Assembly: GCA_022646745.1 (NCBI GenBank)
Contig: CP060262.1
Coordinates: forward strand, 1,680,001 to 1,712,000
Direction: 5' to 3'
Origin: Planctomycetales bacterium
GTDB lineage: Bacteria > 4484-113 > JAFGCY01
DNA: 32,000 nucleotides
The notes under the pieces were generated by a model. It saw only the letters and a program-made list of their open reading frames with translations. It did not search any database and was not told where the DNA came from. Below, piece after piece: positions 3,988-30,633 of the stretch. The position numbers and the translations under genes are program-made. Position 1 is the stretch's first letter. The number at the start of each line of letters is the position of its first letter.

Positions 3988-5604
3988 TCAGCGGCCGAGC
4001 CTGTCCGCCAGCTGGGCTTCGTAGAGTGACAGCGGTTCCACCGGGCCGTTGTTCCAGTGCTCCCAGTGCGCGCCGTTTGGCTTGAGCCGCTTCTTCAGGC
4101 CGGGGTCCTCGCCCCAGCGCATGTTACCGCTCATCCACTTCGATTCGCAGCCGATGGCGTAATTCTGGGCCAGCGGAGGCTTCTCGCAGGCGATGCCGGC
4201 CCCCGGCGCGCGGCAGTTCCACAGCACGCAGTAAGCCGCGCTCCAGCCATGCCCGGTGCCGTAGTTGCTGCGGTTCCACAGCCCGAGCACGAGCTGGGTG
4301 TCCGGCTTTTCAAACGTGATGTTGTCATACAGCGTGCCGGTGCTGTAGCGGTGGTGCGGTTCGCTTGAGGAATGCGTGCCGCGCGACTGGCAAGCGGTGA
4401 ACACGGTGCCCGCGCTGCGGTTGGTGGCAACGGCGAAATCATGCCGCCCGCCCTCCGCCAGGCAGCCCTTCACCAGGTGGTTCTGCCCGCCGCAGTTGAA
4501 GCTGTAGCGCCGCCCGCCCACGACCTGCGACTTTGGCGAGAGGCTGCTGCAGTTGAACACCGAGCCGTGGTAGCTTTCATGTCCGAAGCTGACGAGCGCG
4601 AAGCCGAAGTGGCGGCTGGTCACATTGCGCACCCAGATGTTGCGGCAGTAGTCGAACTCGACGCCGGTCCAGCCGTGGTCCTCGTCCGTTTCGGAGGCAT
4701 AGTCGCTCACGAGCTGCAGGTCCTCCACGCCGATGTTGTCAATCAGCACGGACTCGTCGTAGCGGTACACGAAGCTGTCCGCCCAGTCGCGGTCGAGGTC
4801 GTGGAACAGCGGTACGTTGAAGCCCAGGGTGTTGCCGTTGACCGCCGTCACGCGGCGCAGGTAGCGCAGGTCTCGGCTGCCGGCGGTCCACTGCGTGATC
4901 TTCTCCGTGCGGCTTTCCGGGATGCGGTCCATCCCGAGCTCGCTGATCCACTTGTCCGTGCTCGGACGCTGCACCACGACCAGCTGGCCGACCTGGTACA
5001 GCGAGGCTTCCTGCACCCGCAGGCTGCGCGCCCCGAGTGGCACGAAGTCCTGCGCCACTGCTGAGCGCGTGCGTGCAATCTCGGGATAGGCCGGCAGCTT
5101 GCCATCCGGCCTGGCGAGGATCAGGCTGCGCTGGCCCTTGCCGGCGGCGCGCAGCACAGTGCCACCAGGGCCCTGGCCACTGCCCCGGACCACGATGCCA
5201 CTGGCGGAAATGCGCAGTGTGCCGTCAATGCGGAACTCGCCGGGGCCAAGCAGCAGGCAGCCGCGGAAGCCGTCACTGCCGGGCTTGCGCTGGGCGAGGG
5301 CATCGAGGCTGCGCTGGATGCGCCGCGTGTCATCGCCACTGCCGGGCTTGAGTTCCATCACGGCGGGGACAGCCGGAGGCTGGCGGCCATCGGCGAAGTA
5401 ACCGGCGTAGCTGAAGTCCGGGATGCGGTTGCCACGTTCGTCCGCGCTGTACTGCAGCCGGCCATCGGGGCCGGGCCAGACGAGCGTGCTGTTTGACGCC
5501 TGGCGTGCGTCCGCCTCATTACGCCAGAGCACGAGCGCGGTGCCGGCCGCCAGCAGCAGCATGGCGACTGTGAGCAGGTTCCTGAATGATGGCATTGGGA
5601 TCAT
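3988..5604 (-). CDS. Secreted right-handed beta-helix protein (pectate lyase superfamily-like)
   Basis: The track ORF is 3988-5742. I prefer the internal ATG at 5604 because it gives a classic signal peptide, 'MIPMPSFRNLLTVAMLLLAAGTALVLW'. The N-terminal module 'IPDFSYAGY...GSGDDTRRIQRSLDAL...LLLGPGEFRIDGTLRISASGIVVRGSG' resembles the start of Pectate_lyase_3-type beta-helix proteins. The family call rests on memory of motifs only. Confidence 0.7.
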   Translation of the reverse strand: MIPMPSFRNLLTVAMLLLAAGTALVLWRNEADARQASNSTLVWPGPDGRLQYSADERGNRIPDFSYAGYFADGRQPPAVPAVMELKPGSGDDTRRIQRSLDALAQRKPGSDGFRGCLLLGPGEFRIDGTLRISASGIVVRGSGQGPGGTVLRAAGKGQRSLILARPDGKLPAYPEIARTRSAVAQDFVPLGARSLRVQEASLYQVGQLVVVQRPSTDKWISELGMDRIPESRTEKITQWTAGSRDLRYLRRVTAVNGNTLGFNVPLFHDLDRDWADSFVYRYDESVLIDNIGVEDLQLVSDYASETDEDHGWTGVEFDYCRNIWVRNVTSRHFGFALVSFGHESYHGSVFNCSSLSPKSQVVGGRRYSFNCGGQNHLVKGCLAEGGRHDFAVATNRSAGTVFTACQSRGTHSSSEPHHRYSTGTLYDNITFEKPDTQLVLGLWNRSNYGTGHGWSAAYCVLWNCRAPGAGIACEKPPLAQNYAIGCESKWMSGNMRWGEDPGLKKRLKPNGAHWEHWNNGPVEPLSLYEAQLADRLGR

Positions 5605-5711
5605 GCTTAAATGATCGGGAATGCGGGCAGGCTGGTAAAGTGCGAGGTGCATGAACAGCACGGCCGCTGACCGAGTCTGTGAAGCAGGAAGCATCACTGG
5701 GGAATGTGGAA

Positions 5712-6560
5712 ATGATTGCAAGATATATCTGGCTGGCAACAATCGCCGGCATGCTGCTGGTCGCCAATGCGGCTATGGCGCAGGAAGGGGATGCTGAAAG
5801 CCTAAGCGAAGAGGAACGGCTGAAACGGGTGCTGGACCATTCAGCGGAGGAAACCGTCCTGCTTGAGATCACCCTGCCGCTGGCAATCCAGTTTGACTCT
5901 GAAGGCAGTGATCCATTCCCTGAAAACGTCAGGGAAGCTGAAACCATCAAGCTGGCGGCGACATACTATGCGATCAGTACGCTCGATTTCTCCGTCAGTC
6001 CGCAGGAACTGGTTGACAGCGGCTTCTGGCCTGTGACCCATTTCCCGGCAGGCATTGACATGCACAAGCCGCTCGGCAATATTCCCGGCAGTTCAAACCA
6101 GTCCAGTGGCAAGAAGACCTATGAATTCATGGTGCAGGGTGCCAACAGCCCGGGCTGGCTCGCGGATGCCCGCCGGGACATCCTGCTGGGCTGGTACCAT
6201 GACCAGGACGTCGATGAGCTTGCGCGGGATTTTGACAGTTACGAACTGGCTTCCGCATTCTGGACCAACCCCTACAGCGGCGAGGCGATGCAGGAAAGTG
6301 ATCAGCCGGGGGACTTCGAGCAGATTGACGCTGAGCAGTATGGGATCGTGTATCGCACACAGGCAGTGAGGGAACGTGTCGGCGATGCGGAGCTCAGGTT
6401 GCCGCTGATGAACTATGTGGAGCGCCATGTGTTCTTCAGCCGTCCCGGAGTCACAAGCAACAACATCCAGACCAACTCGAACTACGATTCACAGTATCGC
6501 GATCAGACCAGGTCTGCGCCGCCGGAAGCTGAAGACGCGGAAACGGCAAAGGATCAATAG
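5712..6560 (+). CDS. Secreted hypothetical protein
   Basis: The ORF opens at GTG 5679. The ATG at 5712 gives the signal-peptide-like 'MIARYIWLATIAGMLLVANAAMAQE'. Acidic, with no recognised domain. The choice of start (5679 or 5712) is uncertain. Confidence 0.6.
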   Translation: MIARYIWLATIAGMLLVANAAMAQEGDAESLSEEERLKRVLDHSAEETVLLEITLPLAIQFDSEGSDPFPENVREAETIKLAATYYAISTLDFSVSPQELVDSGFWPVTHFPAGIDMHKPLGNIPGSSNQSSGKKTYEFMVQGANSPGWLADARRDILLGWYHDQDVDELARDFDSYELASAFWTNPYSGEAMQESDQPGDFEQIDAEQYGIVYRTQAVRERVGDAELRLPLMNYVERHVFFSRPGVTSNNIQTNSNYDSQYRDQTRSAPPEAEDAETAKDQ

Positions 6561-6596: not shown

Positions 6597-8018
6597 ATGT
6601 CCGCAGATGCAAACAAGACCAACCGCGTCACCGCGCCCTGGGACCTGTCCCTGATCCGGGAGCTGCCGCTGGACGGCTGGCAGGCCGTTGACACGGCGCT
6701 GGATACCGCACGGACCCTGGCTGACAACTATGATGCCCGCCTGAGTGTTGCGGAGCGCATCGGCATACTCACCCGCGCGCGTAACCTGATGCAGCACCGG
6801 GCTGAGGAGCTGGCTGTGCAGGCCGCGCGTGAGGGTGGCAAGCCGCTGGTGGACAGCCGCGTGGAGGTCACGCGGGCCATCAACGGCTTTGACATCGCAA
6901 TCAATACACTGGGCACGATGACGGGTGAAACGATCCCGATGGGGCTCAACGCTGCCAGCCTGGGACGCACGGCCTGGACGATGCCGGAGCCGATCGGCGT
7001 GGTGGCGGCGATATCCGCCTTCAACCATCCGGTCAACCTGATCGTCCACCAGGCGGTGCCGGCCATCGCCGTTGGCTGCCCGGTGATTGTCAAGCCGGCG
7101 GACGGCACGCCGCTATCGGCCTATTCCGTGGTGGAGATCCTGCATGAAGCCGGCCTGCCGCCGGAGTATTGCCAGGTACTGCTGACGGACATCCCAGACG
7201 CCGAGAAGCTGGCAACGGATACGCGGGTGGACTACCTCAGTTTCATAGGCTCGCAGAAGGTGGGATGGATGCTGCGCTCGAAGCTGGCTCCCGGCACACG
7301 CCTGGCACTGGAGCATGGCGGCACGGCACCGGTGATCCTCGGGGAGGACGCACTGGCAATTGAGCCGCAGCAATTGCTGGCCCCGCTGGCCAAGGGTGCC
7401 TTCTACCACAGCGGGCAGGTCTGCGTCAGCGTGCAGCGGATCTACGGCTGCAAGGGCATTGCCACTTCCATTGCCCATGAACTGGCAGAGATCGCCAGCG
7501 GGCTGAAGGTCGGCGACCCCACGCTGCCGGATACTGAGTGCGGCCCGCTGATCCGTCCCGGCGAGGTTGACAGGGTGGAGAGCTGGGTGAACGAGGCGGT
7601 GTCGGCTGGAGCGCAGCTGCTGTGCGGAGGCCAGAGGCTGAGCGATACCTGTTATGCGCCGACGGTGCTGCTGGACCCGCCGGACGATGCGTTGGTCACG
7701 CGCGAGGAAATCTTCGGCCCGGTGGCCTGTGTGTACAGCAGTGACACGGTTGACGATGCGATCCGCCGTGCCAACGATTCACCCTATGCTTTCCAGGCTT
7801 CAGTGTTCACAAAGGACATTGACGTTGCCATGCACTGCGTCAGGCGCCTCAATGCTGCGGCGGTGATGGTGAACGACCATACGGCCTTCCGGGTGGACTG
7901 GATGCCATTTGGTGGCCGCAAGCTGAGCGGGCTGGGCGTGGGCGGGATCAACTACGCGATGCGTGACATGTGCCAGGACAAGCTGGTGGTGGTGAAGGAG
8001 GTCAGGCCCATGGCCTGA
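6597..8018 (+). CDS. NAD(P)-dependent aldehyde dehydrogenase family protein
   Basis: 473 aa, the typical ALDH length. General-base block 'ALEHGGTAPVIL' and nucleophile block 'GQVCVSVQRIY'. Also 'IFGPV' and 'PFGGRKLSGLG' near the C-terminus. Substrate is not assignable. Confidence 0.9.
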   Translation: MSADANKTNRVTAPWDLSLIRELPLDGWQAVDTALDTARTLADNYDARLSVAERIGILTRARNLMQHRAEELAVQAAREGGKPLVDSRVEVTRAINGFDIAINTLGTMTGETIPMGLNAASLGRTAWTMPEPIGVVAAISAFNHPVNLIVHQAVPAIAVGCPVIVKPADGTPLSAYSVVEILHEAGLPPEYCQVLLTDIPDAEKLATDTRVDYLSFIGSQKVGWMLRSKLAPGTRLALEHGGTAPVILGEDALAIEPQQLLAPLAKGAFYHSGQVCVSVQRIYGCKGIATSIAHELAEIASGLKVGDPTLPDTECGPLIRPGEVDRVESWVNEAVSAGAQLLCGGQRLSDTCYAPTVLLDPPDDALVTREEIFGPVACVYSSDTVDDAIRRANDSPYAFQASVFTKDIDVAMHCVRRLNAAAVMVNDHTAFRVDWMPFGGRKLSGLGVGGINYAMRDMCQDKLVVVKEVRPMA

Positions 8019-8020
8019 CT

Positions 8021-8306
8021 GTCAGTGGTCGGTGGTCAGTGGTCAAAAGGCAGAAGGCAATAGGCAGGAGGCAGGAACAGAAGCAGAAACAGAAGCAGAA
8101 GCAGAAGCAGAATGAGAAGCAGTTGCAGCAGAGAATAGGGGCATCAGGGTGTGAAAGGTTGCCAAGCAACCCAGACCTTACACAAGCTGCTTCTCATTCT
8201 ATTTCTCATTCTCATTCTCATTCTCCTTCTCATACTCATTCTGCTTCTCATTCACATTCTGCTTCTCATACTCATTCTGTTTCTGGCAACTGTTTACTGT
8301 TTACTG
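8021..8306. repeat. Intergenic imperfect palindrome built from 6-7 nt tandem repeats, between convergent genes
   Basis: The left arm is purine-rich: (TCAGTGG)n, (GCAGAAG)n, (CAGAAG)n, GAGAAT. The right arm carries the complements: (CTTCTC/ATTCTC)n, (CTGTTTA)n. 8109-8122 'agaatgagaagcag' is the exact reverse complement of 8187-8200 'ctgcttctcattct'. A small hairpin ggttgc-caa-gcaacc lies in the central loop at 8157-8171. Confidence 0.85.
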
Positions 8307-9929
8307 TTAACTGCCTTCCCCTTCCGCAATGATCTCCTCCAGCTCGTCGGCCACGGCCAAGGCCGCTGCCAAATGCTCCGCTGAATACTGCAGCATGCGG
8401 AAGTAGTAGATGTAGCCGATGCACAGGAGCAGCAGTGACAGCAGGGGGATCGCAGCCCCGCTGGCGAAGTAACTCTCGCCAAACGCGAACATGGAGAACA
8501 CCAGGATTGTGGCCGGCGCCAGCAGGAGCGTTGCCACCGGCAGCAGCAGGTAGCTGAGCCAGCGTTGCCTCAGCTGCCGCTGATCCTCCCCGCAGAACCA
8601 GGCGGCGTTCCATAGAAGCGTCCAGCAGTGCTCAGCGCCGCGCGCATTCACGGCCTGTGGCCGGCCCGGACGGAACAGCAGCGGCTGCAGGAACACCGGG
8701 CAGGATTCCCGCAGAGCGTCGACCGGCAGGCTGCCCATTGCCATTTCCGCGAGCAGGCCGTGCTGCCCGCATTGCAGCCGCATGCGGTGGTAGTGGAGCA
8801 GGGCATGGCTGTCCAGTGCACGCGCGCCACTGATCGCGAGCATGGCCACAAGTGCCATTCCAAACAGGCTGCCCATCCCCAGTGACGCCTCGCCGCCCTG
8901 CAGGATAGTCAGTGTGAACAGGCCGCCGAGGAGCAGCAGCATGAACAGGGGCATGGCGTATGCCGGGGCCACGAAGCGGCCCATCCAGCTGCCACGCGAC
9001 TGCAGCTCGACCTGCAGTTGGGATGAGAGCAGCGCAAGGCTGCCGCTGCCGGACTGGACCTGCACCTCCGGCGGGACATTGTCATACCAGCCCCGGCCGG
9101 CCTGCAGGCTGCCTTGCGAGCGGAAGTATGCCAGCGCCGGCCGCAGTGCGTTGCCGATATGGCGCAGCAGGAATGCACCGCGCCGGCCCGCGGCCTGCAG
9201 CACCGCCAGCAGCAGCAGTGGCACGGACAGCAGGCAGAACATTGCCAGGTAACCGTCGAAGATTGACAGCAGGAGCATGTAGGCCAGCGGCACTGTGAAG
9301 TGCAGCCAGCGTAGGCCCATCAGCCGCAGGCTGCCCCACAGGCCGGGCCGGGCACCACTGACTGCGAGGTTTCGCGCCAGGCCGTCCAGCAGTTGCCGCA
9401 GCTGCTCATCCGTGGCGCCGGACATAGCTGCCTGCAGGACCTGCTGGGCTGATCCGTCGGCAAGCAGGCTGCGCCGCACATGTTGCCGGTCCCGCTCGAA
9501 CCGGCCGCTGACGAACCCGAGTGCGAATGGCTGCGGCACGTTTCCGCTTGCTTCAAGACCAGGTGCCACGACCCGCGCATACCCGGTTGCCAGCCAGGCG
9601 ATTGCCAGCAAGGCTCCGATGGCTGTCAGTGCAACCTGGGAATCCGCAGCGTTGAAATAGTAGGACCAGGCACTTGAGATTACGAACGGGAGCATTGGGG
9701 AAACTGCACAGGCAATGCCGGCTGCCAGCAGGGCGTAGACAATTGCCAGGCTGCGGCGGCGTTCATCCGCTGCCTTGTCCAGCATGTCCGTGAGTACCCG
9801 TTCAACACGGTCCGCTGCCTCGGCCACGGTTGTGCCGGATACGGCCTGTGGTTGCTCCGCCGGCTCCGTTGCCAGCCTGTCCGCCTTACCACCAGGGGGC
9901 AGTGATTGCGCATTCCGTTCAGCTTCCAT
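8307..9929 (-). CDS. Polytopic (about 8 TM) membrane protein, unknown family, paralog 3 of 3
   Basis: 540 aa. Its ATG lies inside the last codons of the upstream paralog (11-nt overlap, 9919-9929). Four hydrophobic helical hairpins. Shares conserved blocks and the acidic tail 'EIIAEGEGS' with the two upstream genes. Confidence 0.8.
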   Translation of the reverse strand: MEAERNAQSLPPGGKADRLATEPAEQPQAVSGTTVAEAADRVERVLTDMLDKAADERRRSLAIVYALLAAGIACAVSPMLPFVISSAWSYYFNAADSQVALTAIGALLAIAWLATGYARVVAPGLEASGNVPQPFALGFVSGRFERDRQHVRRSLLADGSAQQVLQAAMSGATDEQLRQLLDGLARNLAVSGARPGLWGSLRLMGLRWLHFTVPLAYMLLLSIFDGYLAMFCLLSVPLLLLAVLQAAGRRGAFLLRHIGNALRPALAYFRSQGSLQAGRGWYDNVPPEVQVQSGSGSLALLSSQLQVELQSRGSWMGRFVAPAYAMPLFMLLLLGGLFTLTILQGGEASLGMGSLFGMALVAMLAISGARALDSHALLHYHRMRLQCGQHGLLAEMAMGSLPVDALRESCPVFLQPLLFRPGRPQAVNARGAEHCWTLLWNAAWFCGEDQRQLRQRWLSYLLLPVATLLLAPATILVFSMFAFGESYFASGAAIPLLSLLLLCIGYIYYFRMLQYSAEHLAAALAVADELEEIIAEGEGS

Positions 9930-11529
9930 CGGCTTCCCCCTCCTGCACCAGCTGCTCGAGCTCGGCGATCACGGCTGAAGAGTCCCACTGCTGCAGCAGG
10001 CGGGTGCGCAGGATCCATGCATGCAGGGGCAGGGACAGCAGGAACAGCCAGAGCATGAAGGGCCCCATCCCGCTCAGGCTCAGGCCACTGCCCGGGCTGC
10101 TGTTGCCAAGGAAGTAGGACATCGGCACCAGCATAAGCAGCAGCGGCGGTGCCATGGTCACGAGCATGTCCAGCGCTTCCGCGATGATGCCCGGCCGCAG
10201 TGAGCTGCCTTCCTGCCGCAGGTACCAGTTGAGGTTCCAGATCAGTGACCAGCAGGCCTCCATCCCGGGCTGGCGATGCTGCTTCGCGATCGGTGGAAAG
10301 GACAGCACTCCATGCAGCCAGGCCGGGCAGGCATTGAGCATCTCCTGCATCGGCAGCGTGCCTTGCACCACCTGGTCCACCAGTCCGCGCTGCCGGATCT
10401 GTTCACGCCGTTGCGTGATGCGCTGCACCATGTGTGGCTCCAGCAGGCCAGGCATCAGCCGGGCCTGGACCAGCAGGGCGATGCCGACCGCCACGAAGCC
10501 GGACAGCATGCCGAACAGCGGCAGGTAGGCGCTGACTCCGAAGCTGAAGGCAAAGAACAGCATCATGTTGAAGCCCATGTAATGCCGCACGAGGAAGCCG
10601 CTGCGGTTGTCAGAAACCATGCTGCCGTAGTAGGACAGCAGTGCCACCGTGCGCCGGAAAACCTCCGTGCTGCGCTCAACCTGCACCTCGCGGGGAATCG
10701 CCGCCTCGGCTTCCTCGCCCTCCCGGCCACTCTCCAGGTGTTCGAGCACCGGCTCCAGGTAATCCCGCAGCACCGGCAGCAGGAATGCAAAGCGGTAACC
10801 CTGCCGCATCAGTTCCACCGGCAGGCCGATTGACAGGCAGGCCAGCGCCAGGCCTATCCCGTAGTAAAACGGCAGCCGGAAGACCATCGGCACGATGATG
10901 AGCATCATCAGGGGCCACTGGATCACATTGACAAACCAGATGTTCCTGGTCCGGCTGTCCTTGCCGTAGTCGGAGTACTCTGGCAGTTTCCCGGCGATGC
11001 GCCGCAGTTGTGCCAGCGGTCCAGCCTGCATGGCCGGGTCGTCAAATTCGTTGGCAACCAGCTTCTCCGCCAGGCCACTGCCTGCGAGGCCCTCCTTCAG
11101 CAGTTTCAGGAATGGCTGTGGGCTCAGCAGGCTGCCGCCGGGGTTGTACACCGCCGGCAGGCGCCCGGGATCCCGCGCATAGGCCAGTGACTGGTAGCGC
11201 GCAATCGCGGCCGACAGCAGCAGGTAGGCCAGCAGCAGCAGGGGAATGAACAGCGCCAGGCTCAAGGGAGGCTGGAAGGAGCGCATGCTGTACATCGGCA
11301 GCACGAGGATCAGGCCGAAATACAGCAGCCAGTTCGCACTTGCCAGTCCGTTGATCCAGAACACCCGTGGCCTGACATTGGTGCACTCCTTTTCAAGTGC
11401 CGCCATCGCTTTCCGGATCTCATTGATCCGCTGGGCTGGCGGTGCGCTTCCCTCTCTCGCGATTGGGCCAGCTGCGGCCTCGGCAGTGCCTGCACGATCT
11501 GGCAACAGATTTCCCTGTTCAGCTTCCAT
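9919..11529 (-). CDS. Polytopic (about 8 TM) membrane protein, unknown family, paralog 2 of 3
   Basis: 536 aa, starting 'MEAEQ'. Overlaps the upstream paralog by 11 nt (11519-11529). Conserved blocks 'IPREVQVERS', 'GLVDQVVQGTLPMQEMLNACPAWLH', 'EACWSLIWNLNWY' and tail 'QLVQEGEADGS'. Confidence 0.8.
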   Translation of the reverse strand: MEAEQGNLLPDRAGTAEAAAGPIAREGSAPPAQRINEIRKAMAALEKECTNVRPRVFWINGLASANWLLYFGLILVLPMYSMRSFQPPLSLALFIPLLLLAYLLLSAAIARYQSLAYARDPGRLPAVYNPGGSLLSPQPFLKLLKEGLAGSGLAEKLVANEFDDPAMQAGPLAQLRRIAGKLPEYSDYGKDSRTRNIWFVNVIQWPLMMLIIVPMVFRLPFYYGIGLALACLSIGLPVELMRQGYRFAFLLPVLRDYLEPVLEHLESGREGEEAEAAIPREVQVERSTEVFRRTVALLSYYGSMVSDNRSGFLVRHYMGFNMMLFFAFSFGVSAYLPLFGMLSGFVAVGIALLVQARLMPGLLEPHMVQRITQRREQIRQRGLVDQVVQGTLPMQEMLNACPAWLHGVLSFPPIAKQHRQPGMEACWSLIWNLNWYLRQEGSSLRPGIIAEALDMLVTMAPPLLLMLVPMSYFLGNSSPGSGLSLSGMGPFMLWLFLLSLPLHAWILRTRLLQQWDSSAVIAELEQLVQEGEADGS

Positions 11530-13156
11530 CGCCTTCCCCCTCCTGCACCAGCTGCTCCATGCAGCTCAGCACCGCCCAGGCACCGGCAAGGTGCCGGGCG
11601 GCCCCCAGCATACTGAGGTAGATGAGGCAGGTTGTCAGCAACAGGATTGCCAGATACCAGCCTATGAGCGTGATGTTGTCAGGCAACGGGTTCTCTCCGA
11701 CCAGGATGCCGACCAGGTAGACTGGCACACCGACCAGCACTAGTATCGCCGGCAGCAGGCCGAGTGGCAGCAGCCAGTTGCTGTGCCAGCGCGGCCGTAC
11801 CATTGGCACCCGCTCGCCGCAGAACCAGTCGGCATTCCACATCAGGAGCCAGGCCTGCTCATTGGCGGTGCCGCGCAGCTGCTTCGGCATCGTGGGCAGG
11901 TAGAGCATGCGCTGCAGGAAGGGCGGGCAGGACAGCTGCAGTTCGCGGATTGGCAACAGGCCCATTGCCATCTGGCTGACCAACCCGCGCCGGCGGATGC
12001 TGTGTTCCAGCTGCTCCATCCGCGCCAGGGCCTGCCGGCCGACCTGCCAGCTCAGCAGGCGCAGCAGCAGGAACAGCAGGATTGCTGAGACGCCATTGGT
12101 GAACACCTCGCCTGGTGTTGTCACTTCGAACATGTTCAGGACAGCCATCATGCCGCAGAAAACGATCGAGAACAGGAGCGGAGCCACCGTGCCGATTGGC
12201 ACGCTCCAGCCCAGTCCGCTGCCGCGCCGCGCCAGCTCCGCCGCCAGCTCGATCGTCATCCGCCCGAGCCGCCCGCTGCCCTGCTCGACCTGCACCGCCG
12301 GCGGGATTTCCGCATCTCGCGTGCGCTCGGCCTGCAGGCTGCCACTGGCGGCATAGTAGCGCAGGGCGGACTTCAGGTAGGGCGCTGCCAGCTTCAGCCC
12401 GACGATGTAACGGCTGGCTTCCGTGAAATGAAGGGCAGTCCCGATGCCTGCGAACAGCAGGGCCACCATCGGCAGCACCGGTTCGACATGCCTGAAAGTC
12501 AGGCTGATTGGCAGGAGCAGGAGGCCGATCACAGCAGAAGCCAGTGAGAGATTCATTGTGAAGCGCCTGCTGCTGCCTGGGCCCGGTTCGGCAAGCTTGA
12601 ACTGGTGCCCGAGCCTGACAAGCAACTCCTCAACTTTTTCCGGGTCGCGCATTGCGGCCGTTGCCAGCTGCTCGGCGATACCGCTGCTATTCAGGCAGCG
12701 CTCAAGTGCGGCCTGCGCCATGCTGTTATGTACCCGCAGGGGGGCAGGCAGCAGCGGATAGGGCAGGGCAAGCGTGTCACGGTAGTACAGCTTCTCCAGC
12801 CTGCGGTAGATCGCATAGGCAGCCGGCGGCAGTATGCTCAGCAGCAGGAGCAGCAGCCAGCCTGCCTGGGGATAGGGAAGCTGGAACGGGTCGGGTCCGA
12901 ATCCGATCACGAGGAATGCCACCAGCAGGCAGGCGCTGAGCGGCAGCAGGCCCGGCAACAGCCACAGGCAGCGGATCAGGGCCGGCTGGCCCTCGCGGAT
13001 GGCAAGCTCGAGTTCCTTCTCAACGAGCTCGCAGGCCTGCCGCACCTGCTGCGCGCGGTCCACAGGTTCAGGCGTGGAAGCTGCTGGATGCGCTGCCCTC
13101 TCGCCGCGCTCCCGCTGATGCTCCTGCCAGGCTGTCCCCTGCAGATCCTGCTGCAT
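11519..13156 (-). CDS. Polytopic (about 8 TM) membrane protein, unknown family, paralog 1 of 3
   Basis: The track ORF reaches 13219, but its first 21 codons ('MLLLLILILILLLF...') translate the intergenic tandem repeats. I therefore prefer the ATG at 13156 ('MQQDLQGT...'), giving 545 aa. Blocks 'EIPPAVQVEQGSG', 'GLVSQMAMGLLPIRELQLSCPPFLQ', 'EQAWLLMWNADWFCGE' and tail 'QLVQEGEGDGS'. Confidence 0.75.
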   Translation of the reverse strand: MQQDLQGTAWQEHQRERGERAAHPAASTPEPVDRAQQVRQACELVEKELELAIREGQPALIRCLWLLPGLLPLSACLLVAFLVIGFGPDPFQLPYPQAGWLLLLLLSILPPAAYAIYRRLEKLYYRDTLALPYPLLPAPLRVHNSMAQAALERCLNSSGIAEQLATAAMRDPEKVEELLVRLGHQFKLAEPGPGSSRRFTMNLSLASAVIGLLLLPISLTFRHVEPVLPMVALLFAGIGTALHFTEASRYIVGLKLAAPYLKSALRYYAASGSLQAERTRDAEIPPAVQVEQGSGRLGRMTIELAAELARRGSGLGWSVPIGTVAPLLFSIVFCGMMAVLNMFEVTTPGEVFTNGVSAILLFLLLRLLSWQVGRQALARMEQLEHSIRRRGLVSQMAMGLLPIRELQLSCPPFLQRMLYLPTMPKQLRGTANEQAWLLMWNADWFCGERVPMVRPRWHSNWLLPLGLLPAILVLVGVPVYLVGILVGENPLPDNITLIGWYLAILLLTTCLIYLSMLGAARHLAGAWAVLSCMEQLVQEGEGDGS

Positions 13157-13177
13157 AGGCGGATTGTACCTTGAAGC

Positions 13178-13460
13178 AAACAGAAGCAGAATCAGAATGA
13201 GAATCAGAAGCAGCAGCACTCAGGCTATAGCCTGCCGGCTCATGCCTTGAGTTTCACTCCCTTCCTGATCTGATCCTTCTCCTTCTGATCTGATCCTTTT
13301 CCTTCTGATTCTGATTCTGATTCTGCTCACTCTTCATTGCTGCCTGCCTGCCATTCCACGGGAATGGCCTCCTGTCAGGCCATGGGCCTGACCTCCACTG
13401 CATTCTGCTTCTGCCTTCTGCCTTCTGCCCACTGACCACTGACCACTGACTACTGTTTAC
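13178..13460. repeat. Intergenic imperfect palindrome of 6-7 nt tandem repeats, in a divergent promoter region
   Basis: 13186-13207 'gcagaatcagaatgagaatcag' matches the reverse complement of 13305-13326 'ctgattctgattctgattctgc' at 21 of 22 positions. 13395-13450 is the reverse complement of the ordered mosaic seen at 8021-8120: (TCAGTGG)3, then (GCAGAAG)n, then GCAGAATG. Internal palindromes are caggctatagcctg (13221-13234) and ccattcc-acg-ggaatgg (13351-13367). Confidence 0.85.
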
Positions 13461-13580: not shown

Positions 13581-16500
13581 ATGCGTAACCGTTTCCTGAC
13601 TGCCGCGCTGGCGTGCATCTGCACTGCTGCGCTCCATTCCAATGCCCGCGCCAACGAGTACACCGTCGATGCCGGGCTGCTGCGTTACCCCGATGTCAGC
13701 GCCGACAGCATCTGCTTCAGCTTCGGCAATGATGTCTGGACCGTGCCGATCAGCGGCGGCACCGCCTCCCGGCTGAGCAGCACCTCCGGCGAGGAGATCC
13801 TCGCGCGCTTCAGCCCGGACGGCTCGCACATCGCCTACAGCGCCAACTACGAGGGCAGCCGCGATGTGTACATCCTGCCGCGCGAGGGTGGCATCCCACA
13901 GCGCCTGACCTGGAACCCCGGGTCCTGCAACATGGTGGACTTCACCGCGGACGGCGACGTGATGTTCTACTCCGGTTACGAGAGCAAGCACAACGGCGGC
14001 GGGCGGATCTACCGGGTCAGCAGCCAGGGCGGCATCCCGACGGCGCTGCCGATGGAGTTCGCCGTCTACGGCACGCTGGACAAGGATGGCAAGACCTTCG
14101 CCTTCACGCCCTCCAGCCGTGAGACCCGCACCTGGAAGCGCTACCAGGGCGGTCTGGCGCAGGATATCTGGCTTTTGGACATCGAGAGCCTCGAAAGCGA
14201 GCAGATCACCGACTGGCCGGGCACCGACGCCCTGCCGATGATCGATGGCAACGATGTGTGGTACATGTCTGACCGGGGCCCGGCGCACCGCCTGAACATC
14301 TGGCGCTACGACCGTACGACGAAAGAGCATACCCAGCTCACCAAGTTCACCGACTACGACATCAAGTGGCCCAGCATGGGCCCCGCGCACATCGTGTTCG
14401 AGAACGGTGGCGACCTCTGGCTGTATGAAAAGGCATCCGGCAAGGCCTCCAAGGTGGCCGTCAGCCTGCCCGGCGACCGTCCGACGCTGATGACAACTGC
14501 GATGGATGTGACGGACCAGTTCGGCGACGTGATGGCCAGCCCCAACGGCAAGCGGCTCGTGGGTGAGGCCCGGGGCGATGTCTGGACCATCCCGGTGGAG
14601 GAGGGCATCAACCGCAACCTGACGATGACGGACGGCTTCGCCGAGCGCAACCCGCGCTGGAGCCCGGACGGGCAGTGGATCTGCTGGCTCGGTGACAACA
14701 CGGGCAACTACGAGATCTACATCGCGCAGTCCGACGGCAAGGGCGAGACCCGCCAGCTGACGAAGGGCAGCGAGACCTTCTACACACGGCCCGAGTGGTC
14801 GCCGGATTCGAAGAAGATCAGCTATGCGGACAGCACCGGCCGGATCCACATCTTCGACATTGACAAGGACGAGTCGCGTGAGATCGACCGCGACCCCTGG
14901 GCCTACTACCCCTACACCAGCGTGAACTGGAGCGCGGACAGCCGCTGGGTGACCTACGGCCGGCTGAACCGTGAGAACCAGAACAGCCAGGTGATGCTCT
15001 ACGACTTTGACAACGACAAGCTGCACAGCGTGACGGATCCGATGTTCGGCCATGTCCAGCCGGTGTTCGACCTTTCCGGCGACTACCTGTACTACATCTC
15101 GCGCCTGAACTTCAACCACCGCTTCGGCGACATGGACTCGACCTACATCTACACCGACAGCCAGGTGCTGTGCGTCGTGCCGCTGCGCAATGACGTGGAC
15201 TCCCCCTTCGCGCTTTCGAATGACGAGGAGGAGATCAAGGCTGAAGAGAAACAGGATGAGAATGAGAAGCAGGATGAGGAGAAGGCGGAAGGCGAGGACG
15301 GCGCTGGCGAGGGCAAGGAAGAGAAAGCCGACAGGAAGGATGGCAAGGACAAGAAAAAGGACAAGAAGAAGGGCATCGACATCGATATTGAGGGCTTCGA
15401 GTCCCGCGCGATCGAGATCCCGCTGCGTCCCGGCAGCTATGGCAACCTGCAGGCCGCCGAGGGCCGCATCTTCTACACCTTCGGCGGCTTCAACAGCGGC
15501 CGCGAGGCCTACACCTACGACCTGAAGGAGCAGAAGGAGGAGAAGCTCGGTGACGGCATCGGCGACTTCCAGCTGCTGCCCGGTGGCAAGCAGATGCTGA
15601 TCAGCGGACGCGGCAACCGCTATGCAATCGTCAAGGCCGGCCCGAATGCCCGCTTCGACAAGGCGGTCAGCGTTGCCAACCTCACCGCCGACATCAACCC
15701 GCGCCATGAGTGGAAGCAGCTGGTGACCGACGCCTGGCGCTTCTACCGAGACCTGTTCTATGCCCCGAACCTGCATGAGGTGGACTGGGACCTGGTCGGC
15801 AAGCGCTACATCGGGATGGTGGACCACGCCGTCAACCGCCAGGATGTGAGCTACATCATCGGCGAGATGATCGGCGAACTGAACACCGGACACACCTACT
15901 ACAGCGGCCCGGGCGAAGCGCAGCCGAACCGCAATGTCGGCCTGCTTGGCGCTGACTATGAGCTGGCAACGCAGGACGGCAGCAGCGCCTGGCGGATCAG
16001 CCACATCTTCCACGGCGCGGACTTCGACGTGGACAGCCGCGGCCCGCTTTCCGAGCCCGGACTGGATGTCGGCGAGGGTGACTTCCTGCTGGCCGTCAAT
16101 GGCGTGGCACTGTCAACGAAACTGCCGGTCTGGGCCGGCTTCCAGGGCATGGCCGGCCAGACGACCATCCTGACAATCTCAGACGACGCGGTGCTTGGCA
16201 ATGATGACGACCGCGAGCTGGTGGTGCGCCCCGTCGGCAACGAGCAGGGCATGCGCCGCTTCGACTGGATCGAGGCCAACCGCCAGAAGGTGCTGGAGGC
16301 GACCGACGGCAAGGTCGGCTACATCTACGTGCCCAACACCAGCGGCGACGGCGTGAACAACCTGATGCGCCAGCTGCAGGGCCAGTACCACCTTGACGGG
16401 CTCGTGATCGACGAGCGCTGGAACGGCGGCGGCTACATCCCGACCTACTTCATCGACATCCTCGGCAGGAAGACCTACAGTTACTGGGCGCGCCGCGACG

Positions 16501-16937
16501 GTGAGGACTGGAGCACGCCGGACCTCGCGCACAACGGACCGAAGGTGATGCTGATCAACGCCAAGAGCGGATCCGGCGGCGATGCCTTCCCGTACTACTT
16601 CCGCCAGGCCGGGCTCGGCCCGCTGGTCGGTACCCGCACCTGGGGCGGCCTGGTCGGCATCTCCGGCTCACCGCGCCTGATCGACGGCAGCCGCCCCTCG
16701 ATCCCGATCTTCGGCTTCTACGAGCTGGACGGCAGCTGGGGCATCGAGGGCCACGGCGTCGATCCGGATATTGAAGTGATTGACGACCCGGGCCTGCTGG
16801 CAAAGGGCCAGGACCCGCAGCTGGACGCGGCGATCACCGAGATCCGCCGCCTGATCTTCGAGCAGCCCTACCGCAAGCCGGGCACCCCGCCCTGGCCGGA
16901 CCGCAGCGGTGTGGGCGTGAAGGAAAGTGAGAAGTAG
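13581..16937 (+). CDS. Secreted tricorn protease homolog (beta-propellers + PDZ + S41 peptidase), paralog 1
   Basis: 1118 aa. GGGAGG lies 5 nt upstream of the ATG. Signal peptide 'MRNRFLTAALACICTAALHSNARA'. Tricorn-like N-terminus 'LRYPDVSADSICFSFGNDVWTVPISGG', repeated 'SPDG' propeller blades, His block 'GELNTGHTYY' and Ser block 'INAKSGSGGDAFPYYFR'. Confidence 0.9.
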   Translation: MRNRFLTAALACICTAALHSNARANEYTVDAGLLRYPDVSADSICFSFGNDVWTVPISGGTASRLSSTSGEEILARFSPDGSHIAYSANYEGSRDVYILPREGGIPQRLTWNPGSCNMVDFTADGDVMFYSGYESKHNGGGRIYRVSSQGGIPTALPMEFAVYGTLDKDGKTFAFTPSSRETRTWKRYQGGLAQDIWLLDIESLESEQITDWPGTDALPMIDGNDVWYMSDRGPAHRLNIWRYDRTTKEHTQLTKFTDYDIKWPSMGPAHIVFENGGDLWLYEKASGKASKVAVSLPGDRPTLMTTAMDVTDQFGDVMASPNGKRLVGEARGDVWTIPVEEGINRNLTMTDGFAERNPRWSPDGQWICWLGDNTGNYEIYIAQSDGKGETRQLTKGSETFYTRPEWSPDSKKISYADSTGRIHIFDIDKDESREIDRDPWAYYPYTSVNWSADSRWVTYGRLNRENQNSQVMLYDFDNDKLHSVTDPMFGHVQPVFDLSGDYLYYISRLNFNHRFGDMDSTYIYTDSQVLCVVPLRNDVDSPFALSNDEEEIKAEEKQDENEKQDEEKAEGEDGAGEGKEEKADRKDGKDKKKDKKKGIDIDIEGFESRAIEIPLRPGSYGNLQAAEGRIFYTFGGFNSGREAYTYDLKEQKEEKLGDGIGDFQLLPGGKQMLISGRGNRYAIVKAGPNARFDKAVSVANLTADINPRHEWKQLVTDAWRFYRDLFYAPNLHEVDWDLVGKRYIGMVDHAVNRQDVSYIIGEMIGELNTGHTYYSGPGEAQPNRNVGLLGADYELATQDGSSAWRISHIFHGADFDVDSRGPLSEPGLDVGEGDFLLAVNGVALSTKLPVWAGFQGMAGQTTILTISDDAVLGNDDDRELVVRPVGNEQGMRRFDWIEANRQKVLEATDGKVGYIYVPNTSGDGVNNLMRQLQGQYHLDGLVIDERWNGGGYIPTYFIDILGRKTYSYWARRDGEDWSTPDLAHNGPKVMLINAKSGSGGDAFPYYFRQAGLGPLVGTRTWGGLVGISGSPRLIDGSRPSIPIFGFYELDGSWGIEGHGVDPDIEVIDDPGLLAKGQDPQLDAAITEIRRLIFEQPYRKPGTPPWPDRSGVGVKESEK

Positions 16938-17051
16938 GCGATAAACTTGCGTCGCCTGAAACATAATCATATGGATATGGTGTCTGGACTTCCCATGGGG
17001 GAAGCCCCGCTGTATTCATCCACATATCCTGGCGCGAGCCATGGAGGAATA

Positions 17052-20000
17052 ATGCTTTACCGTAACCTTATCGCCACGGTGCTTCTGCTGTGCTGCGCCC
17101 AAGCAGTACCGGCGGCCGCTGCCGACTTTGACATCGACGCCGCGATGCTGCGTTTCCCTGATGTCTCGGACACGCAGATCGCGTTTGCTTATAACAACGA
17201 CCTGTGGATCGCCCCCAAGGGTGGTGGCACGGCCGTGCCGCTCAGCAGCCCGGCCGGCACCGAGATCCTGCCGCATTTCAGCCCGGACGGGAAGTCCATT
17301 GCCTTCACTGCCAACTACGAAGGCAACCAGGACGTCTACATCATGCCCGTCGAAGGCGGCATCCCGAAGCGCCTGACCTTCGGCCCGATGCAGGACATGG
17401 TGGTCGGCTTCGACTCCGAGGGCAATGTGCTGTTCTCCAACGCCAGCGAAATGAAGAACTATGGCGGCGGGAAGATCTACAGCATCAGCCCCAATGGCGG
17501 GATCCCCGAGGCCCTGCCGCTGGAGTACGGCGCCTTCTGCAGCGTGGAGGGTGACACCATCGCCTTCACGCCGTCCACCCGCGAGAACCGCACCTGGAAG
17601 CGTTACCAGGGTGGCCTGGCGCAGGACATCTGGCTGCTCAACAAGAAGACACTCGCGAGCGAGCGCATCACCGATTTCCCCGGCACCGATGCCCAGCCGA
17701 TGCTGCACGGCGACAAGGTCTACTTCGTGTCCGATGCCGGTCCGGAGAACCGCCTGAACCTGTGGGTCTATGACCGCACTACGAAGAAGCGCAGCCAGCT
17801 CACTGAATTCAAGGACTTCGACTGCAAGTTCCCCGGCATGGGTCCCTCCGAGATCGTGCTCGAGAACGGTGGCGACCTCTACCTCTACGGCATCGCCAGC
17901 GGCGAGCTGAAGTCCGTCAAGATCCGCATCCCGGGTGACCGCCCGACACTCATGACCCAGAGCGAGGATGTCAGCCCGCTGATCTTCAGTGCCAGCCCCT
18001 CCCCGAACGGAGTGCGCCTCGCGCTTGAGGCCCGCGGCGAGATCTGGACGGTGCCCGTCGAGGACGGCATCAAGCGCAACCTGACGATGTCCCCGGACAG
18101 CAATGAGCGCTACCCGGTCTGGAGCCCTGATGGCAAGTGGATCGCCTACTTCAGCGATGCCGACGGTGACTATGAACTGTATGTGACCCAGAGTGACGGC
18201 CGCGGCGAGACGCGCCAGCTCACGACGGATGACGAGACCTGGTTCACCAACCCGGTCTGGAGCCCGGATTCCAGCAAGATCGCCTTTGCCGACCGCACAG
18301 GATCGATCTTCATTCACAGCATCGAGCAGGAGACCACATTCCTGATCGACGAGGACCCCTGGGCGGCCTACCCCTACACGAATGTGGTCTGGTCGGCGGA
18401 TTCCAGCTGGCTGGCCTACTCGCGGATGGACAATGAGAATGGCAACGGTGTGATCGTGCTGTACGACGTCGTCAACGCCTGGGCGCACCAGGTGACGAGC
18501 TCGATGTTCTCCAGCACCAACCCGACTTTTGACCGCAATGGCAACTACCTGTACTTCCTCACCAACCGCAGCTTCCAGCACAGCTTCGGCGACCTGGACG
18601 AGACTTACGTCTTCCCGGACAGCACGCTGATGGCCTGTGTGCCGCTGCGCAATGACGTGAAGGACCCCTGGGCCGGCGGCAATGACGATGAGGAGATCAA
18701 GGCCGAGGAGAAGGCTGACGAATCCAAGGACGAGGCCAAGGCCGAAGGCGAGGGCGATGAGGCCGCCGACGGGGATAAGCCCGCCGATGAGGAGAAGCCA
18801 GCCGCGGAGGAAGAGAAGCCCGGCCTGAAGATCGACATCGAGGGCTTCGAGGGCCGTGCGATCCTGATGCCGCTGCCCGGTGGCAACTACTGGAACCTGG
18901 AGGCCGGCGAGGGCAAGGTGTTCTACGTCGATGGCAACAACCCGGCCGGCCCGACGATCATGATGTTCGGCGCCGGTGAGGACCAGCCCGCCCCCGTAAT
19001 CGGCGGTGCCTTCGGCTTCGGCCTGCTGCCCGACGGCAAGCGCATGCTTGTCAGCGTCGGTGGCCGGATGGGCATCATCAACGCCGCTCCGAACCAGAAG
19101 CTGGACAAGCCGGTAGACACCTCCGGCCTGGTGATGGAGTACGAGCCGCGTGGGCACTGGCGCTCACTGGTGCGTGATGCGCACCGGATGTACAAGTACC
19201 TGTTCTACGACCCGAACCTGCACAAGGTGGACTGGGACAAGGTCGGCAAGCGCTACATCGGCATGGTTGACGACGCCGTCAACCGCCAGGACATCACCTG
19301 GATCATCTCCGAGATGATCTCCGAGCTGAACGTGGGCCACTCCTACTACGGCGGCCCCTCCGACCCGGCCCCCAGCCGCAGCGTCGGCCTGCTTGGTGCT
19401 GACTACGAATACGTGAATGATGGCAACGGCCAGTCCGGCATCCGCATCGCCCACATCTTCGGCGGCGCGGACTGGGACCTTGATGCCCGCTCGCCGCTCT
19501 GGCTGCCTGGTGAGGACGTGGCAGAGGGCGACTTCATCATCGCCGTCAACAACGTGCCGGTCGACCCGGGCATGCCGCTCGATGCGGCGATGCAGGGCCT
19601 CGCCGGCCAGACCACCGTGCTGACCATCAGTGACGATGCGACGGTTGGCGACGATGACCGCGAGGTGGTCGTCACCCCGATCGGCTGGGACTATGAGCTG
19701 CGCCGCCGCGACTGGATCGAGGCCAACCGCCGCTACGTCGAGGAGAAGACCGGCGGCAAGGTCGGCTACATCTACGTGCCGGACACCGCGCAGGACGGTG
19801 TCAACAACCTGATGCGCCAGTTCGTCGGCCAGTTCACCCGCCAGGGCCTGATCGTCGACGAGCGCTGGAACGGCGGTGGCTACATCCCGACCTACTTCAT
19901 TGACATCCTCTCACGCAAGTCCCGCAGCTACTGGGCGCGCCGCGATGGCAACACCTGGGCGACCCCGACGCTGGCCCACAACGGCCCGAAGGTGATGCTC

Positions 20001-20384
20001 GCCAACAGCCACTCCGGCTCCGGCGGCGACTGCTTCCCCTACTACTGGCGCCAGGAGGGCCTCGGCCCGATCATCGGCACCCGCACCTGGGGCGGCCTGA
20101 TCGGCATCAGCGGCCAGCCGAACCTCGTGGACGGCACGCGCCCGACGATCCCGATCTTCGCCTTCTTCGAGCTGGACGGCACCTGGGGCATCGAGGGCTA
20201 CGGCGTCGACCCGGACATCGAGGTGGTTGACGACCCGGGCCTGCTGGCGAAAGGCCAGGACCCGCAGCTGGACCGCGCGATCGCCGAGATCATGAAGGCG
20301 GTGGAGGAGCATCCCTACAGCATCCCGCCGGTGCCGGCCTATCCGGACCGCAGCGGCAAGGGCACCAAGCCCGCAGATCGCTAG
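17052..20384 (+). CDS. Secreted tricorn protease homolog (beta-propellers + PDZ + S41 peptidase), paralog 2
   Basis: The track ORF starts at 16947. The ATG at 17052 follows GGAGGA (17043-17048) and gives the signal peptide 'MLYRNLIATVLLLCCAQAVPAAAA'. Collinear with paralog 1: 'LRFPDVSDTQIAFAYNNDLWIAPKGGG', 'SELNVGHSYY', 'ANSHSGSGGDCFPYYWR'. Confidence 0.9.
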   Translation: MLYRNLIATVLLLCCAQAVPAAAADFDIDAAMLRFPDVSDTQIAFAYNNDLWIAPKGGGTAVPLSSPAGTEILPHFSPDGKSIAFTANYEGNQDVYIMPVEGGIPKRLTFGPMQDMVVGFDSEGNVLFSNASEMKNYGGGKIYSISPNGGIPEALPLEYGAFCSVEGDTIAFTPSTRENRTWKRYQGGLAQDIWLLNKKTLASERITDFPGTDAQPMLHGDKVYFVSDAGPENRLNLWVYDRTTKKRSQLTEFKDFDCKFPGMGPSEIVLENGGDLYLYGIASGELKSVKIRIPGDRPTLMTQSEDVSPLIFSASPSPNGVRLALEARGEIWTVPVEDGIKRNLTMSPDSNERYPVWSPDGKWIAYFSDADGDYELYVTQSDGRGETRQLTTDDETWFTNPVWSPDSSKIAFADRTGSIFIHSIEQETTFLIDEDPWAAYPYTNVVWSADSSWLAYSRMDNENGNGVIVLYDVVNAWAHQVTSSMFSSTNPTFDRNGNYLYFLTNRSFQHSFGDLDETYVFPDSTLMACVPLRNDVKDPWAGGNDDEEIKAEEKADESKDEAKAEGEGDEAADGDKPADEEKPAAEEEKPGLKIDIEGFEGRAILMPLPGGNYWNLEAGEGKVFYVDGNNPAGPTIMMFGAGEDQPAPVIGGAFGFGLLPDGKRMLVSVGGRMGIINAAPNQKLDKPVDTSGLVMEYEPRGHWRSLVRDAHRMYKYLFYDPNLHKVDWDKVGKRYIGMVDDAVNRQDITWIISEMISELNVGHSYYGGPSDPAPSRSVGLLGADYEYVNDGNGQSGIRIAHIFGGADWDLDARSPLWLPGEDVAEGDFIIAVNNVPVDPGMPLDAAMQGLAGQTTVLTISDDATVGDDDREVVVTPIGWDYELRRRDWIEANRRYVEEKTGGKVGYIYVPDTAQDGVNNLMRQFVGQFTRQGLIVDERWNGGGYIPTYFIDILSRKSRSYWARRDGNTWATPTLAHNGPKVMLANSHSGSGGDCFPYYWRQEGLGPIIGTRTWGGLIGISGQPNLVDGTRPTIPIFAFFELDGTWGIEGYGVDPDIEVVDDPGLLAKGQDPQLDRAIAEIMKAVEEHPYSIPPVPAYPDRSGKGTKPADR

Positions 20385-22963: not shown

Positions 22964-23385
22964 GCGGGATGCGGAATGCGGGATGGGGGACGGGCATAAG
23001 GGAGCGCGTAGCGAAGGAACGCGCCAGCGTGACTTAGCTGCGCGAATGGGAATGTGCGATGGTAAATGAAGTGTCCAGTTGTCATTGATCAGATGCTGGA
23101 ATCATTGCTGCAGAATTATCGAGGGCTGCAGCAGCAGCTGACATACGACTGGAATTGAGTGCCTGATCCACTCCGCTTCTCATTGTCATTCCATGCATGG
23201 ACACTGCCCCGATTATCCTCAGTGGCGTGAGAGCTGCAGATAGGTTCCCTGTTCCCTGTTCCCTGTTTCCAGATGATCTGCCCTTCCCCCATCCCCCATC
23301 CCTCGCCCCTCGATTGCCCATCCCCCATCCCGCATCCCTCGCCCCCCGATTGCCCATCCCCCGTCCCGCATCCCCCATCCCGATT
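22964..23385. repeat. Intergenic inverted GGGATG(C)/CATCCC repeat arms with internal 36-bp direct repeat and (CCCTGTT)3
   Basis: 22973-22990 'ggaatgcgggatggggga' matches the reverse complement of 23321-23338 'tcccccatcccgcatccc' at 17 of 18 positions. The direct repeat 'catccctcgcccYcgattgcccatcccc' occurs at 23297-23325 and 23333-23361 (36-nt period). (CCCTGTT)3 lies at 23245-23270. Confidence 0.8.
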
Positions 23386-25782: not shown

Positions 25783-25922
25783 GGGATGCGGGATGAGCAG
25801 AGCAGGCATAGAGCATTGATTGCGGAGCAATGAGCGAAGCAACCTCAATGCAGGATTGGATCATTGCTCATTCTTCATTGCTCATTGCTTCCCACATCCC
25901 TCATCCCACATCCTTCATTGCT
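25783..25922. repeat. Intergenic imperfect palindrome: (GGGATGC)2-(GAGCAG)-(GCAATGA) arm versus (TCATTGC)n-(CATCCC)n arm
   Basis: 25784-25797 'ggatgcgggatgag' matches the reverse complement of 25900-25913 'ctcatcccacatcc' at 13 of 14 positions. The inner arms 'gcggagcaatgagcgaagcaa' and 'tcattgctcattcttcattgctcattgc' are also approximately complementary. Confidence 0.8.
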
Positions 25923-26952: not shown

Positions 26953-26954
26953 CA

Positions 26955-27818: not shown

Positions 27819-27819
27819 G

Positions 27820-27848
27820 TCAGTAGTCAGTGGTCAGTGGTCAGTGGC
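27820..27848. repeat. (TCAGTGG)-type heptamer tandem repeat, third occurrence of this motif class
   Basis: The tract 'tcagtagtcagtggtcagtggtcagtggc' uses the same heptamer as 8021-8044 and, as the complement, 13428-13450. Confidence 0.8.
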
Positions 27849-30577: not shown

Positions 30578-30633
30578 GGAATTGATCATTAGAAGCAAAA
30601 GACAAGGGCGTATGTCAATGTATAATTTTGAGA

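Follow-up and report, generated by a model that had tools for sequence, protein, structure and literature searches.

What kind of membrane protein is encoded by three consecutive genes of similar size on contig CP060262.1 (assembly GCA_022646745.1, deposited as Planctomycetales bacterium), and do the three depend on one another? The DNA analyzed here is the stretch of 32,000 nucleotides (nt) from position 1,680,001 to 1,712,000 of the forward strand, hereafter the window, which has a GC content of about 64%. An earlier note on this DNA, made from the letters, had described three minus-strand open reading frames (ORFs) as tandem paralogs of an unrecognized family with eight transmembrane (TM) helices, and had suggested that a fixed, coupled triplet encodes a hetero-oligomeric complex. 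The three ORFs, of 545, 536, and 540 amino acids (aa), were found where that note had placed them and are named here genes A, B, and C:

11519..13156, minus strand: gene A, 545 aa from its ATG, the first gene of the putative operon and a fast-evolving paralog

9919..11529, minus strand: gene B, 536 aa, the most conserved of the three paralogs, in a distinct 'B-type' clade

8307..9929, minus strand: gene C, 540 aa, the sole paralog retained by one related genome (L002)

For gene A, the ATG start is the one used in database gene calls for its orthologs, and a GTG-start version reaching position 13219 adds only a translated hexamer-repeat leader. The database copy of this gene (P0001) is 99% identical. 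Spurious ORFs of GC-rich DNA were considered and ruled out, as at least four genomes encode orthologs whose protein sequences are conserved. Pairwise BLASTP comparisons gave 28% identity for A and B (E 2e-20), 33% for A and C (E 1e-31), and 26% for B and C (E 1e-12), and all four of the shared sequence blocks quoted in the earlier note are present. Judged by these alignments, A, B, and C are true paralogs with a similarity far beyond chance.

The membrane topology was predicted from Kyte-Doolittle hydropathy and the positive-inside rule. Each protein has four pairs of hydrophobic segments, at approximately residues 58–118, 198–245, 314–374, and 457–523, and the single segments of about 20–22 residues are long enough for full membrane spans. 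In A, B, and C, the turns inside the hairpins are 1–6 residues long, and the loops between hairpins measure 79, 68, and 82 aa in A, 79, 75, and 82 aa in B, and 77, 65, and 83 aa in C, each with 5–11 lysine and arginine residues. These residues are concentrated at the loop-side flanks of every hairpin, and the short turns hold none or one; by the positive-inside rule, the N-terminus, all large loops, and the C-terminal tail are therefore probably on the cytoplasmic side of the inner membrane. Both the layout of four hairpins separated by Arg-rich soluble segments (here 65–83 aa) and the assignment of all soluble parts to one face, probably the cytoplasmic one, agree with the first description of these genes.

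That description missed an internal duplication behind the paralogy and the shared blocks. When the N-terminal half of the family alignment was compared with the C-terminal half, hhalign gave a probability of 95.4% (E 1.7e-8; 223 aligned columns, in which the SGLAE and RGL motifs of the two halves coincide), a type of score that hydrophobic helices can inflate. In two distant members (P0014 and P0016), the motif 'SGLA..L..G.L....I....P......P..P......L....NLDWYLGPP....R..W' occurs in both halves of the protein. In A, B, and C, loop 1 retains 'SG(I/L)AE.L' and loop 3 retains the full motif 'RGL....A.G.LP..EL..SCP..L...L..P..P........E..W.LMWN.DWF......R', so that the loop of the N-terminal module is marked by 'SGLAE' and that of the C-terminal module by G-x-LP...P...P...W-x3-WN-x2-W...R. 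The loop-3 motifs are located as follows:

11789..12004, minus strand: conserved, predicted cytoplasmic loop-3 motif of gene A, RGLVSQMAMGLLP...SCP...P...EQAWLLMWNADWF...R

10189..10404, minus strand: conserved, predicted cytoplasmic loop-3 motif of gene B, the same motif as in gene A

8562..8777, minus strand: conserved, predicted cytoplasmic loop-3 motif of gene C, which holds the family-wide invariant residues P411, L418, W436, N441, and R454

A unit of about 260 aa is independently supported because three stand-alone half-size genes exist, namely P0007 (308 aa, corresponding to the C-terminal half) and one gene at each of two other family loci (322 aa in L004 and 315 aa in L003). Each protein is, as far as the alignments indicate, a tandem internal duplication of a four-helix module of this size, with the predicted order cytoplasmic helix, TM hairpin, cytoplasmic helical loop, TM hairpin, and cytoplasmic helix.

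Does this architecture belong to a known family? In Pfam, A, B, and C had no match at E ≤ 1, and ten other family members gave only noise (E ≥ 0.013, with scores under the cut-off). In NCBIfam, the best E-value for A, B, C, and ten other members was 0.49. No family match was found in PADLOC or PHROGs, sequence-profile searches of the PDB returned only noise (best E 0.37 and 1.2 for profiles of 3 and 16 sequences, respectively), and the Pfam and NCBIfam profile scans found no catalytic or transporter family. An intramembrane protease or glycosyltransferase was also considered and rejected, given the lack of conserved polar TM residues and of motifs. AlphaFold2 models were built from family alignments of 16–18 sequences for gene B (mean predicted local distance difference test score, pLDDT, 74.9; predicted template modeling score, pTM, 0.72) and gene C (mean pLDDT 74.1; pTM 0.75). 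Both are predicted to be all-alpha, with helices of 40–50 residues that would run from the membrane deep into the cytoplasm. Foldseek searches of the PDB with both models had best E-values of 0.084 and 0.8 and TM-scores ≤0.24, and one model was also compared with BFVD; none of the matches is significant. A literature search found nothing on these genes, including under the names UBP7 and HKST-UBA03. The depositor's label was not relied on, and the GTDB phylum UBP7, with a GC content of 36–53% and 0.8–1.4 Mb (PMC11382960), is a mismatch with a sequence of 64% GC. With no confident profile or structure match in these scans, which for Foldseek covered the PDB and BFVD with models from shallow alignments, 'unrecognized' is the honest label for the family, as had been proposed.

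The family is also very rare. An exhaustive hidden Markov model search of 1.84 billion cluster representatives recovered 16 proteins at E ≤ 1e-3 and eight at E ≤ 1e-30. Two loci were present among 185,579 species genomes scanned, and two metagenome-contig scans added zero and one, the extra locus being a fragment. A word-indexed protein search returned near-identical or orthologous proteins only and did not widen the family, and no family homolog was found in viral contigs, phage genomes (tblastn), or plasmids (tblastn). All named members are annotated as 'hypothetical protein [bacterium]' and come from metagenome-assembled genomes (MAGs). The family is bacterial and restricted to a handful of uncultured bacteria.

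The distribution of conserved positions indicates which part of the protein matters. In an alignment of 11 sequences (conserved meaning at least 70% of a column; numbering of C), conserved columns make up 10 of the 216 in the TM blocks, all apolar (L, G, P, or a boundary W), and 58 of the 324 in the soluble parts. The conserved soluble residues include the invariant R312, G391, G399, P411, L418, P421, W436, W440, N441, and R454; no polar or charged residue is conserved in the TM blocks of this alignment. Between the window and its counterpart in MAG HKST-UBA03 (L001), the identity of TM versus soluble parts is 37 versus 62% for A and 34 versus 51% for C. Likewise, 10 of the 15 differences between gene C and its copy in a 97%-identical strain are located in the hairpins. 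The AlphaFold2 confidence follows the same division, with a pLDDT of 80–95 in the cytoplasmic helices and 50–70 in the hairpins. The conserved and confidently modeled part is thus predicted to be an all-alpha cytoplasmic domain made of long TM-helix extensions, loops, and terminal helices, and it includes a Trp-rich juxtamembrane segment just before TM7. Because both constraint and model confidence are found in the soluble parts, the hairpins may be generic membrane anchors and the cytoplasmic domain the functional part.

This pattern makes a channel, a transporter, or an intramembrane enzyme less likely. It is unlikely that the family is an ion channel or transporter in which eight TM helices, or a CorA-type oligomer of hairpins, make up a pore for which the cytoplasmic helical domain would be the gate. 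Such a function would suit eight TM helices with long cytoplasmic helical extensions, and tandem paralogous subunits are common in heteromeric channels and transporters. In addition, the recurrent weak top Foldseek matches are membrane domains of ABC exporters (TM-score 0.20–0.24, probability ≤0.41), which have only long-helix character in common with the models. However, the TM blocks are the least conserved parts and hold no conserved polar or charged residue, the short periplasmic turns (1–6 residues) are not conserved, no nucleotide-binding domain is present, Pfam, NCBIfam, and the PDB gave no match, and all Foldseek E-values are at least 0.08.

How tightly the three genes are coupled can be seen at their junctions. 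A overlaps B, and B overlaps C, by 11 nt each, within a nearly identical unit:

11517..11557, minus strand: A/B junction, a 41-nt unit with the tail EQLVQEGEGDGS and its stop, GGAGGGGG (Shine-Dalgarno-like), and the overlapping ATG of B

9917..9957, minus strand: B/C junction, a copy of the A/B junction

The junction sequence, GAGCAGCTGGTGCAGGAGGGGGAAG(G/C)CGATGGAAGCTGAAC, is identical at 40 of the 41 positions, and the DNA around the two junctions does not align. It holds the codons for the tail 'EQLVQEGE(G/A)DGS' with the stop codon, a ribosome-binding site of the GGAGG type, and the first codons ('MEAE') of the gene that follows. As arranged here, A-B-C is one predicted translationally coupled operon. 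In L001, B has a different end and C has its own leader and N-terminus, so the B/C junction of the window is a secondary copy of the A/B junction. The acidic tail that had been listed among the shared blocks is present in A, B, and C, and a looser acidic C-terminus is common across the family. However, because the 41-nt junction was copied, a point the earlier note missed, the near-identity of the A and B tails is largely a DNA-level coupling signal and not independent protein conservation.

Coupling in the window does not mean that the triplet is fixed. Related genomes can be compared in a slot delimited by a pair of tricorn-like protease genes on one side and an aldehyde dehydrogenase gene on the other:

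13581-16937 and 16947-20384: tricorn-like S41 protease genes, a divergent pair, whose two proteases are 56% identical to each other

13157..13335, minus strand: 5' leader of the putative operon, with inverted CAGAAT/CAGAAG hexamer arrays in a predicted long hairpin (minimum free energy, MFE, -74.8 kcal/mol; z -4.56)

6597-8018: convergent aldehyde dehydrogenase gene, flanking the operon beyond gene C

The family genes found in this slot are as follows:

Window: three coupled genes

L010 (97%-identical strain): three coupled genes; the triplet was seen on 5 contigs

L001 (MAG HKST-UBA03): A and B coupled, then a spacer of about 290 nt with a second leader copy, then C

L002 (MAG AC1.30): only C

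L008 (Joint Genome Institute, JGI, metagenome): only the half-size P0007

Neither A nor B was detected by a motif scan in the rest of the L002 genome. The DNA upstream of C in L002 is colinear with the tricorn-proximal part of L001, then with the common leader, then with the start of C. This is the state expected from recombination between leaders that deleted A and B, which may have occurred, although the reverse event (insertion) is also conceivable. The leader of about 190 nt is kept in L002 and, as two copies that precede A and C, in L001, and the repeat arrays are at 9568-10000 and 13230-13515 in L001 and at 8684-9265 in L002.

Outside this slot, L004 has two full-length genes and a half-size gene, all overlapping, and its two full-length genes adjoin in HKST-UBA03 too. 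L007 has two full-length genes, and L003 has a half-size gene, a full-length gene, a spacer of about 1 kb, and a second full-length gene. A rough neighbor-joining tree indicates that the pairs in L004 and L007 are independent in origin of the A/B/C split. The L003 spacer (4354-5400) contains several copies of a GC-rich palindromic repeat of about 60 nt (…GTAGCAGCGGCGCCCCCGCCGCTGTAAGCAGAC…), unlike the intergenic repeats of the window. A 466-aa neighbor was considered as a conserved partner of the family and rejected, as the L005 protein is unrelated and the L007 protein is another family member.

The 'fixed, coupled triplet' of the earlier note therefore has to be given up, since the slot holds three copies, three with a spacer, one, or half a copy in related genomes. 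The same applies to an obligate hetero-trimer: a hetero-oligomer cannot be obligatory because L002 keeps only C and L008 only half a copy. A hetero-oligomer may still form where several paralogs are present, because tandem pairs or triplets recur independently (L003, L004, and L007), and in these loci the homologs occur as tandem arrays and not only as isolated single genes.

The slot also bears on the link to tricorn-like proteases that the earlier note had asked about. In the window, L010, L001, L002, and L008, the order is tricorn pair, family member(s), aldehyde dehydrogenase, and in the window the triplet and the protease genes flank one common divergent intergenic region of 424 nt. Both proteases have PDZ and S41 domains, which read C-termini in other S41 enzymes, as well as Sec-type signal peptides. 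The family proteins could then be a membrane anchor, regulator, or substrate of the proteases, for example through a C-terminal tail read by the PDZ/S41 domains. However, the five loci form one syntenic block in closely related genomes (neighbors 70–90% identical), and the family loci in L003, L004, L005, and L007 have no tricorn or S41 neighbor. The linkage is thus seen within the block and absent from these other loci, an unreplicated synteny. It is also topologically awkward, given that the proteases carry Sec-type signal peptides and that a cytoplasmic location is predicted for the tail and the conserved parts of the membrane proteins. Moreover, the membrane gene copies vary from 3 to 0.5, whereas the protease pair is constant. 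A partnership with the proteases is on balance quite unlikely. As a separate observation, the first tricorn-like protease has a Glu/Lys-rich low-complexity insert of about 70 aa (approximately residues 545–615), with a match to the hexamer pattern at 15246-15281.

Variation in copy number is accompanied by uneven rates. Compared with the L001 orthologs, A is 52% identical, B 81%, and C 45%, whereas the flanking genes are 70–90% identical, indicating that A and C evolve unusually fast. Fast evolution and copy turnover would be accounted for if these were membrane effectors driven by conflict, acting in phage defense, abortive infection, or as a toxin or immunity protein, and the differing copy number among close relatives, the recombination of paralogs, and the extremely rare and patchy distribution (16 representatives in 1.84 billion) point the same way. 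On the other hand, the rate of B is that of the background, no match was found in PADLOC or PHROGs, the phage, plasmid, and viral-contig collections contain no homolog, and no sensor or nuclease partner is encoded nearby. The locus is also placed among housekeeping-type genes in conserved synteny and not in a defense island. A role in conflict is very unlikely.

Taken together, these patterns lead to a tentative proposal, which we hold with low confidence: the proteins may form a modular scaffold or assembly that is anchored in the membrane and works at its cytoplasmic face, and would be neither transporters nor enzymes. The hairpins would serve as membrane anchors, and modules from one or several paralogs (2–6 per locus) would associate as homo- or hetero-oligomers. 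An oligomerizing unit fits the half-size genes, the recurrent tandem duplication, and the translational coupling, and homo-oligomers must suffice because single-copy and half-copy genomes exist. Several points weigh against this proposal. The scaffold idea was arrived at by elimination, and some channels (e.g., CorA-type hairpin channels) likewise have poorly conserved TM helices. With one copy in L002 and half a copy in L008, A/B/C hetero-oligomers cannot be essential. We infer the topology from hydropathy and the positive-inside rule alone, and the AlphaFold2 alignments comprise only 16–18 sequences, with the TM parts at a pLDDT of 50–70. A more specific version has a slim chance of being right, namely a bacterial membrane-remodeling or membrane-coat system in which the 4-TM modules of full- and half-length paralogs, 5–6 per locus, would form a ring or lattice at the cytoplasmic face, and curvature would be imposed or sensed by the hairpins together with the Trp-rich in-plane segment. 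If true, the family would be a bacterial analog of the eukaryotic membrane-shaping hairpin proteins, on a new fold.

The leader of the operon has a counterpart beyond gene C:

8060..8306, minus strand: 3' intergenic region from C to the convergent aldehyde dehydrogenase gene, with inverted hexamer arrays in a predicted long hairpin (MFE -86.5 kcal/mol; z -5.58), possibly a terminator

The hexamer-repeat leader is not found upstream of the family members in L008 or L004 and is therefore no regulatory element of the family as a whole. Its role, whether regulatory or recombinogenic, may be specific to this lineage. Scans for sigma-70 promoters and intrinsic terminators around the operon gave nothing above background, and scans of the window for Rfam families and tRNA genes had no match. 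Similar arrays are widespread in the window, as almost every intergenic region has tandem repeats with a unit of 6–7 nt (CAGAAG/CAGAAT/TTCTCA, GTCAGTG, ACTGTTT, CTGCCTT, and CCCATCC), at 8021-8313, 13173-13455, 23244-23381, 25861-25918, and 27819-27858. The hexamer pattern has 33 matches against 0.03 expected, and (GTCAGTG)3, present at three intergenic sites, has seven against zero expected. Such a wealth of arrays is unusual for a bacterial genome.

Other parts of the window show features of their own. A secreted hypothetical protein of 293 aa (5679-6560) is 41% identical to its L001 counterpart and 85% identical to its L002 counterpart, whereas the neighbors of this gene are about equally similar to L001 and L002, which suggests allelic replacement or recombination at this gene. 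A CHAP-domain protein (26146-26952) is followed by a 286-aa ORF (26931-27791) with a weak PADLOC match to bacterial gasdermin (E 0.005, residues 234–280 only) that is probably noise. Finally, a low-GC island at 28001-31000 (GC 0.33–0.43, compared with about 0.64 elsewhere in the window) was probably acquired horizontally. Its two ORFs, a 644-aa orphan with N-terminal hydrophobic segments (28279-30213) and a 167-aa ORF (30628-31131), have no match in Pfam, NCBIfam, PADLOC, or PHROGs.

Candidate phyla and other uncultured lineages commonly carry orphan membrane families. If the fold prediction holds, this one adds a membrane-protein architecture that combines an internal repeat (2 x 4 TM) with a structured all-alpha cytoplasmic domain and has no relative among characterized families or solved structures. 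The locus is also a clear small-scale example of family evolution, in which a module was duplicated within a gene, genes were duplicated in tandem more than once, a 41-nt coupling junction was re-used, and two genes were possibly lost by recombination between duplicated leaders (insertion being the alternative). The practical importance is limited until a function is found, and nothing links the family to a known open question.

Among known systems, the type IV (B-family) ABC exporters (MsbA, TAP, and Sav1866) were the most frequent weak Foldseek matches of the family models (TM-score 0.15–0.24, E ≥ 0.4, not significant). Like the family, they are all-alpha, and their TM helices continue 20–30 residues into the cytoplasm as a helical stalk. 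However, they have six TM helices and not eight, and the internal repeat of the family (2 x 4 TM) is different. The family proteins do not match ABC_membrane (PF00664) or ABC_tran, and no nucleotide-binding domain is encoded in the neighborhood. CorA/ZntB-type channels, which need oligomerization for function, offer an analogy in their hairpin with a very short periplasmic turn on a large cytoplasmic helical domain. However, CorA has a single hairpin and a conserved GMN turn motif, whereas the proteins described here have four hairpins, lack a conserved motif at the turns, and matched nothing in Pfam or the PDB. The reticulon/REEP/Yop1 hairpin proteins are similar, by analogy, in having paired hairpins with minimal exposure on the far side, cytoplasmic termini and loops, an aromatic-rich juxtamembrane segment, and weakly conserved TM sequences. 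No sequence or fold match connects the two groups, and the hydrophobic segments of the family (about 20–22 residues) are compatible with full spans. Compared with these eukaryotic proteins, the family is bacterial and has much larger structured cytoplasmic domains.

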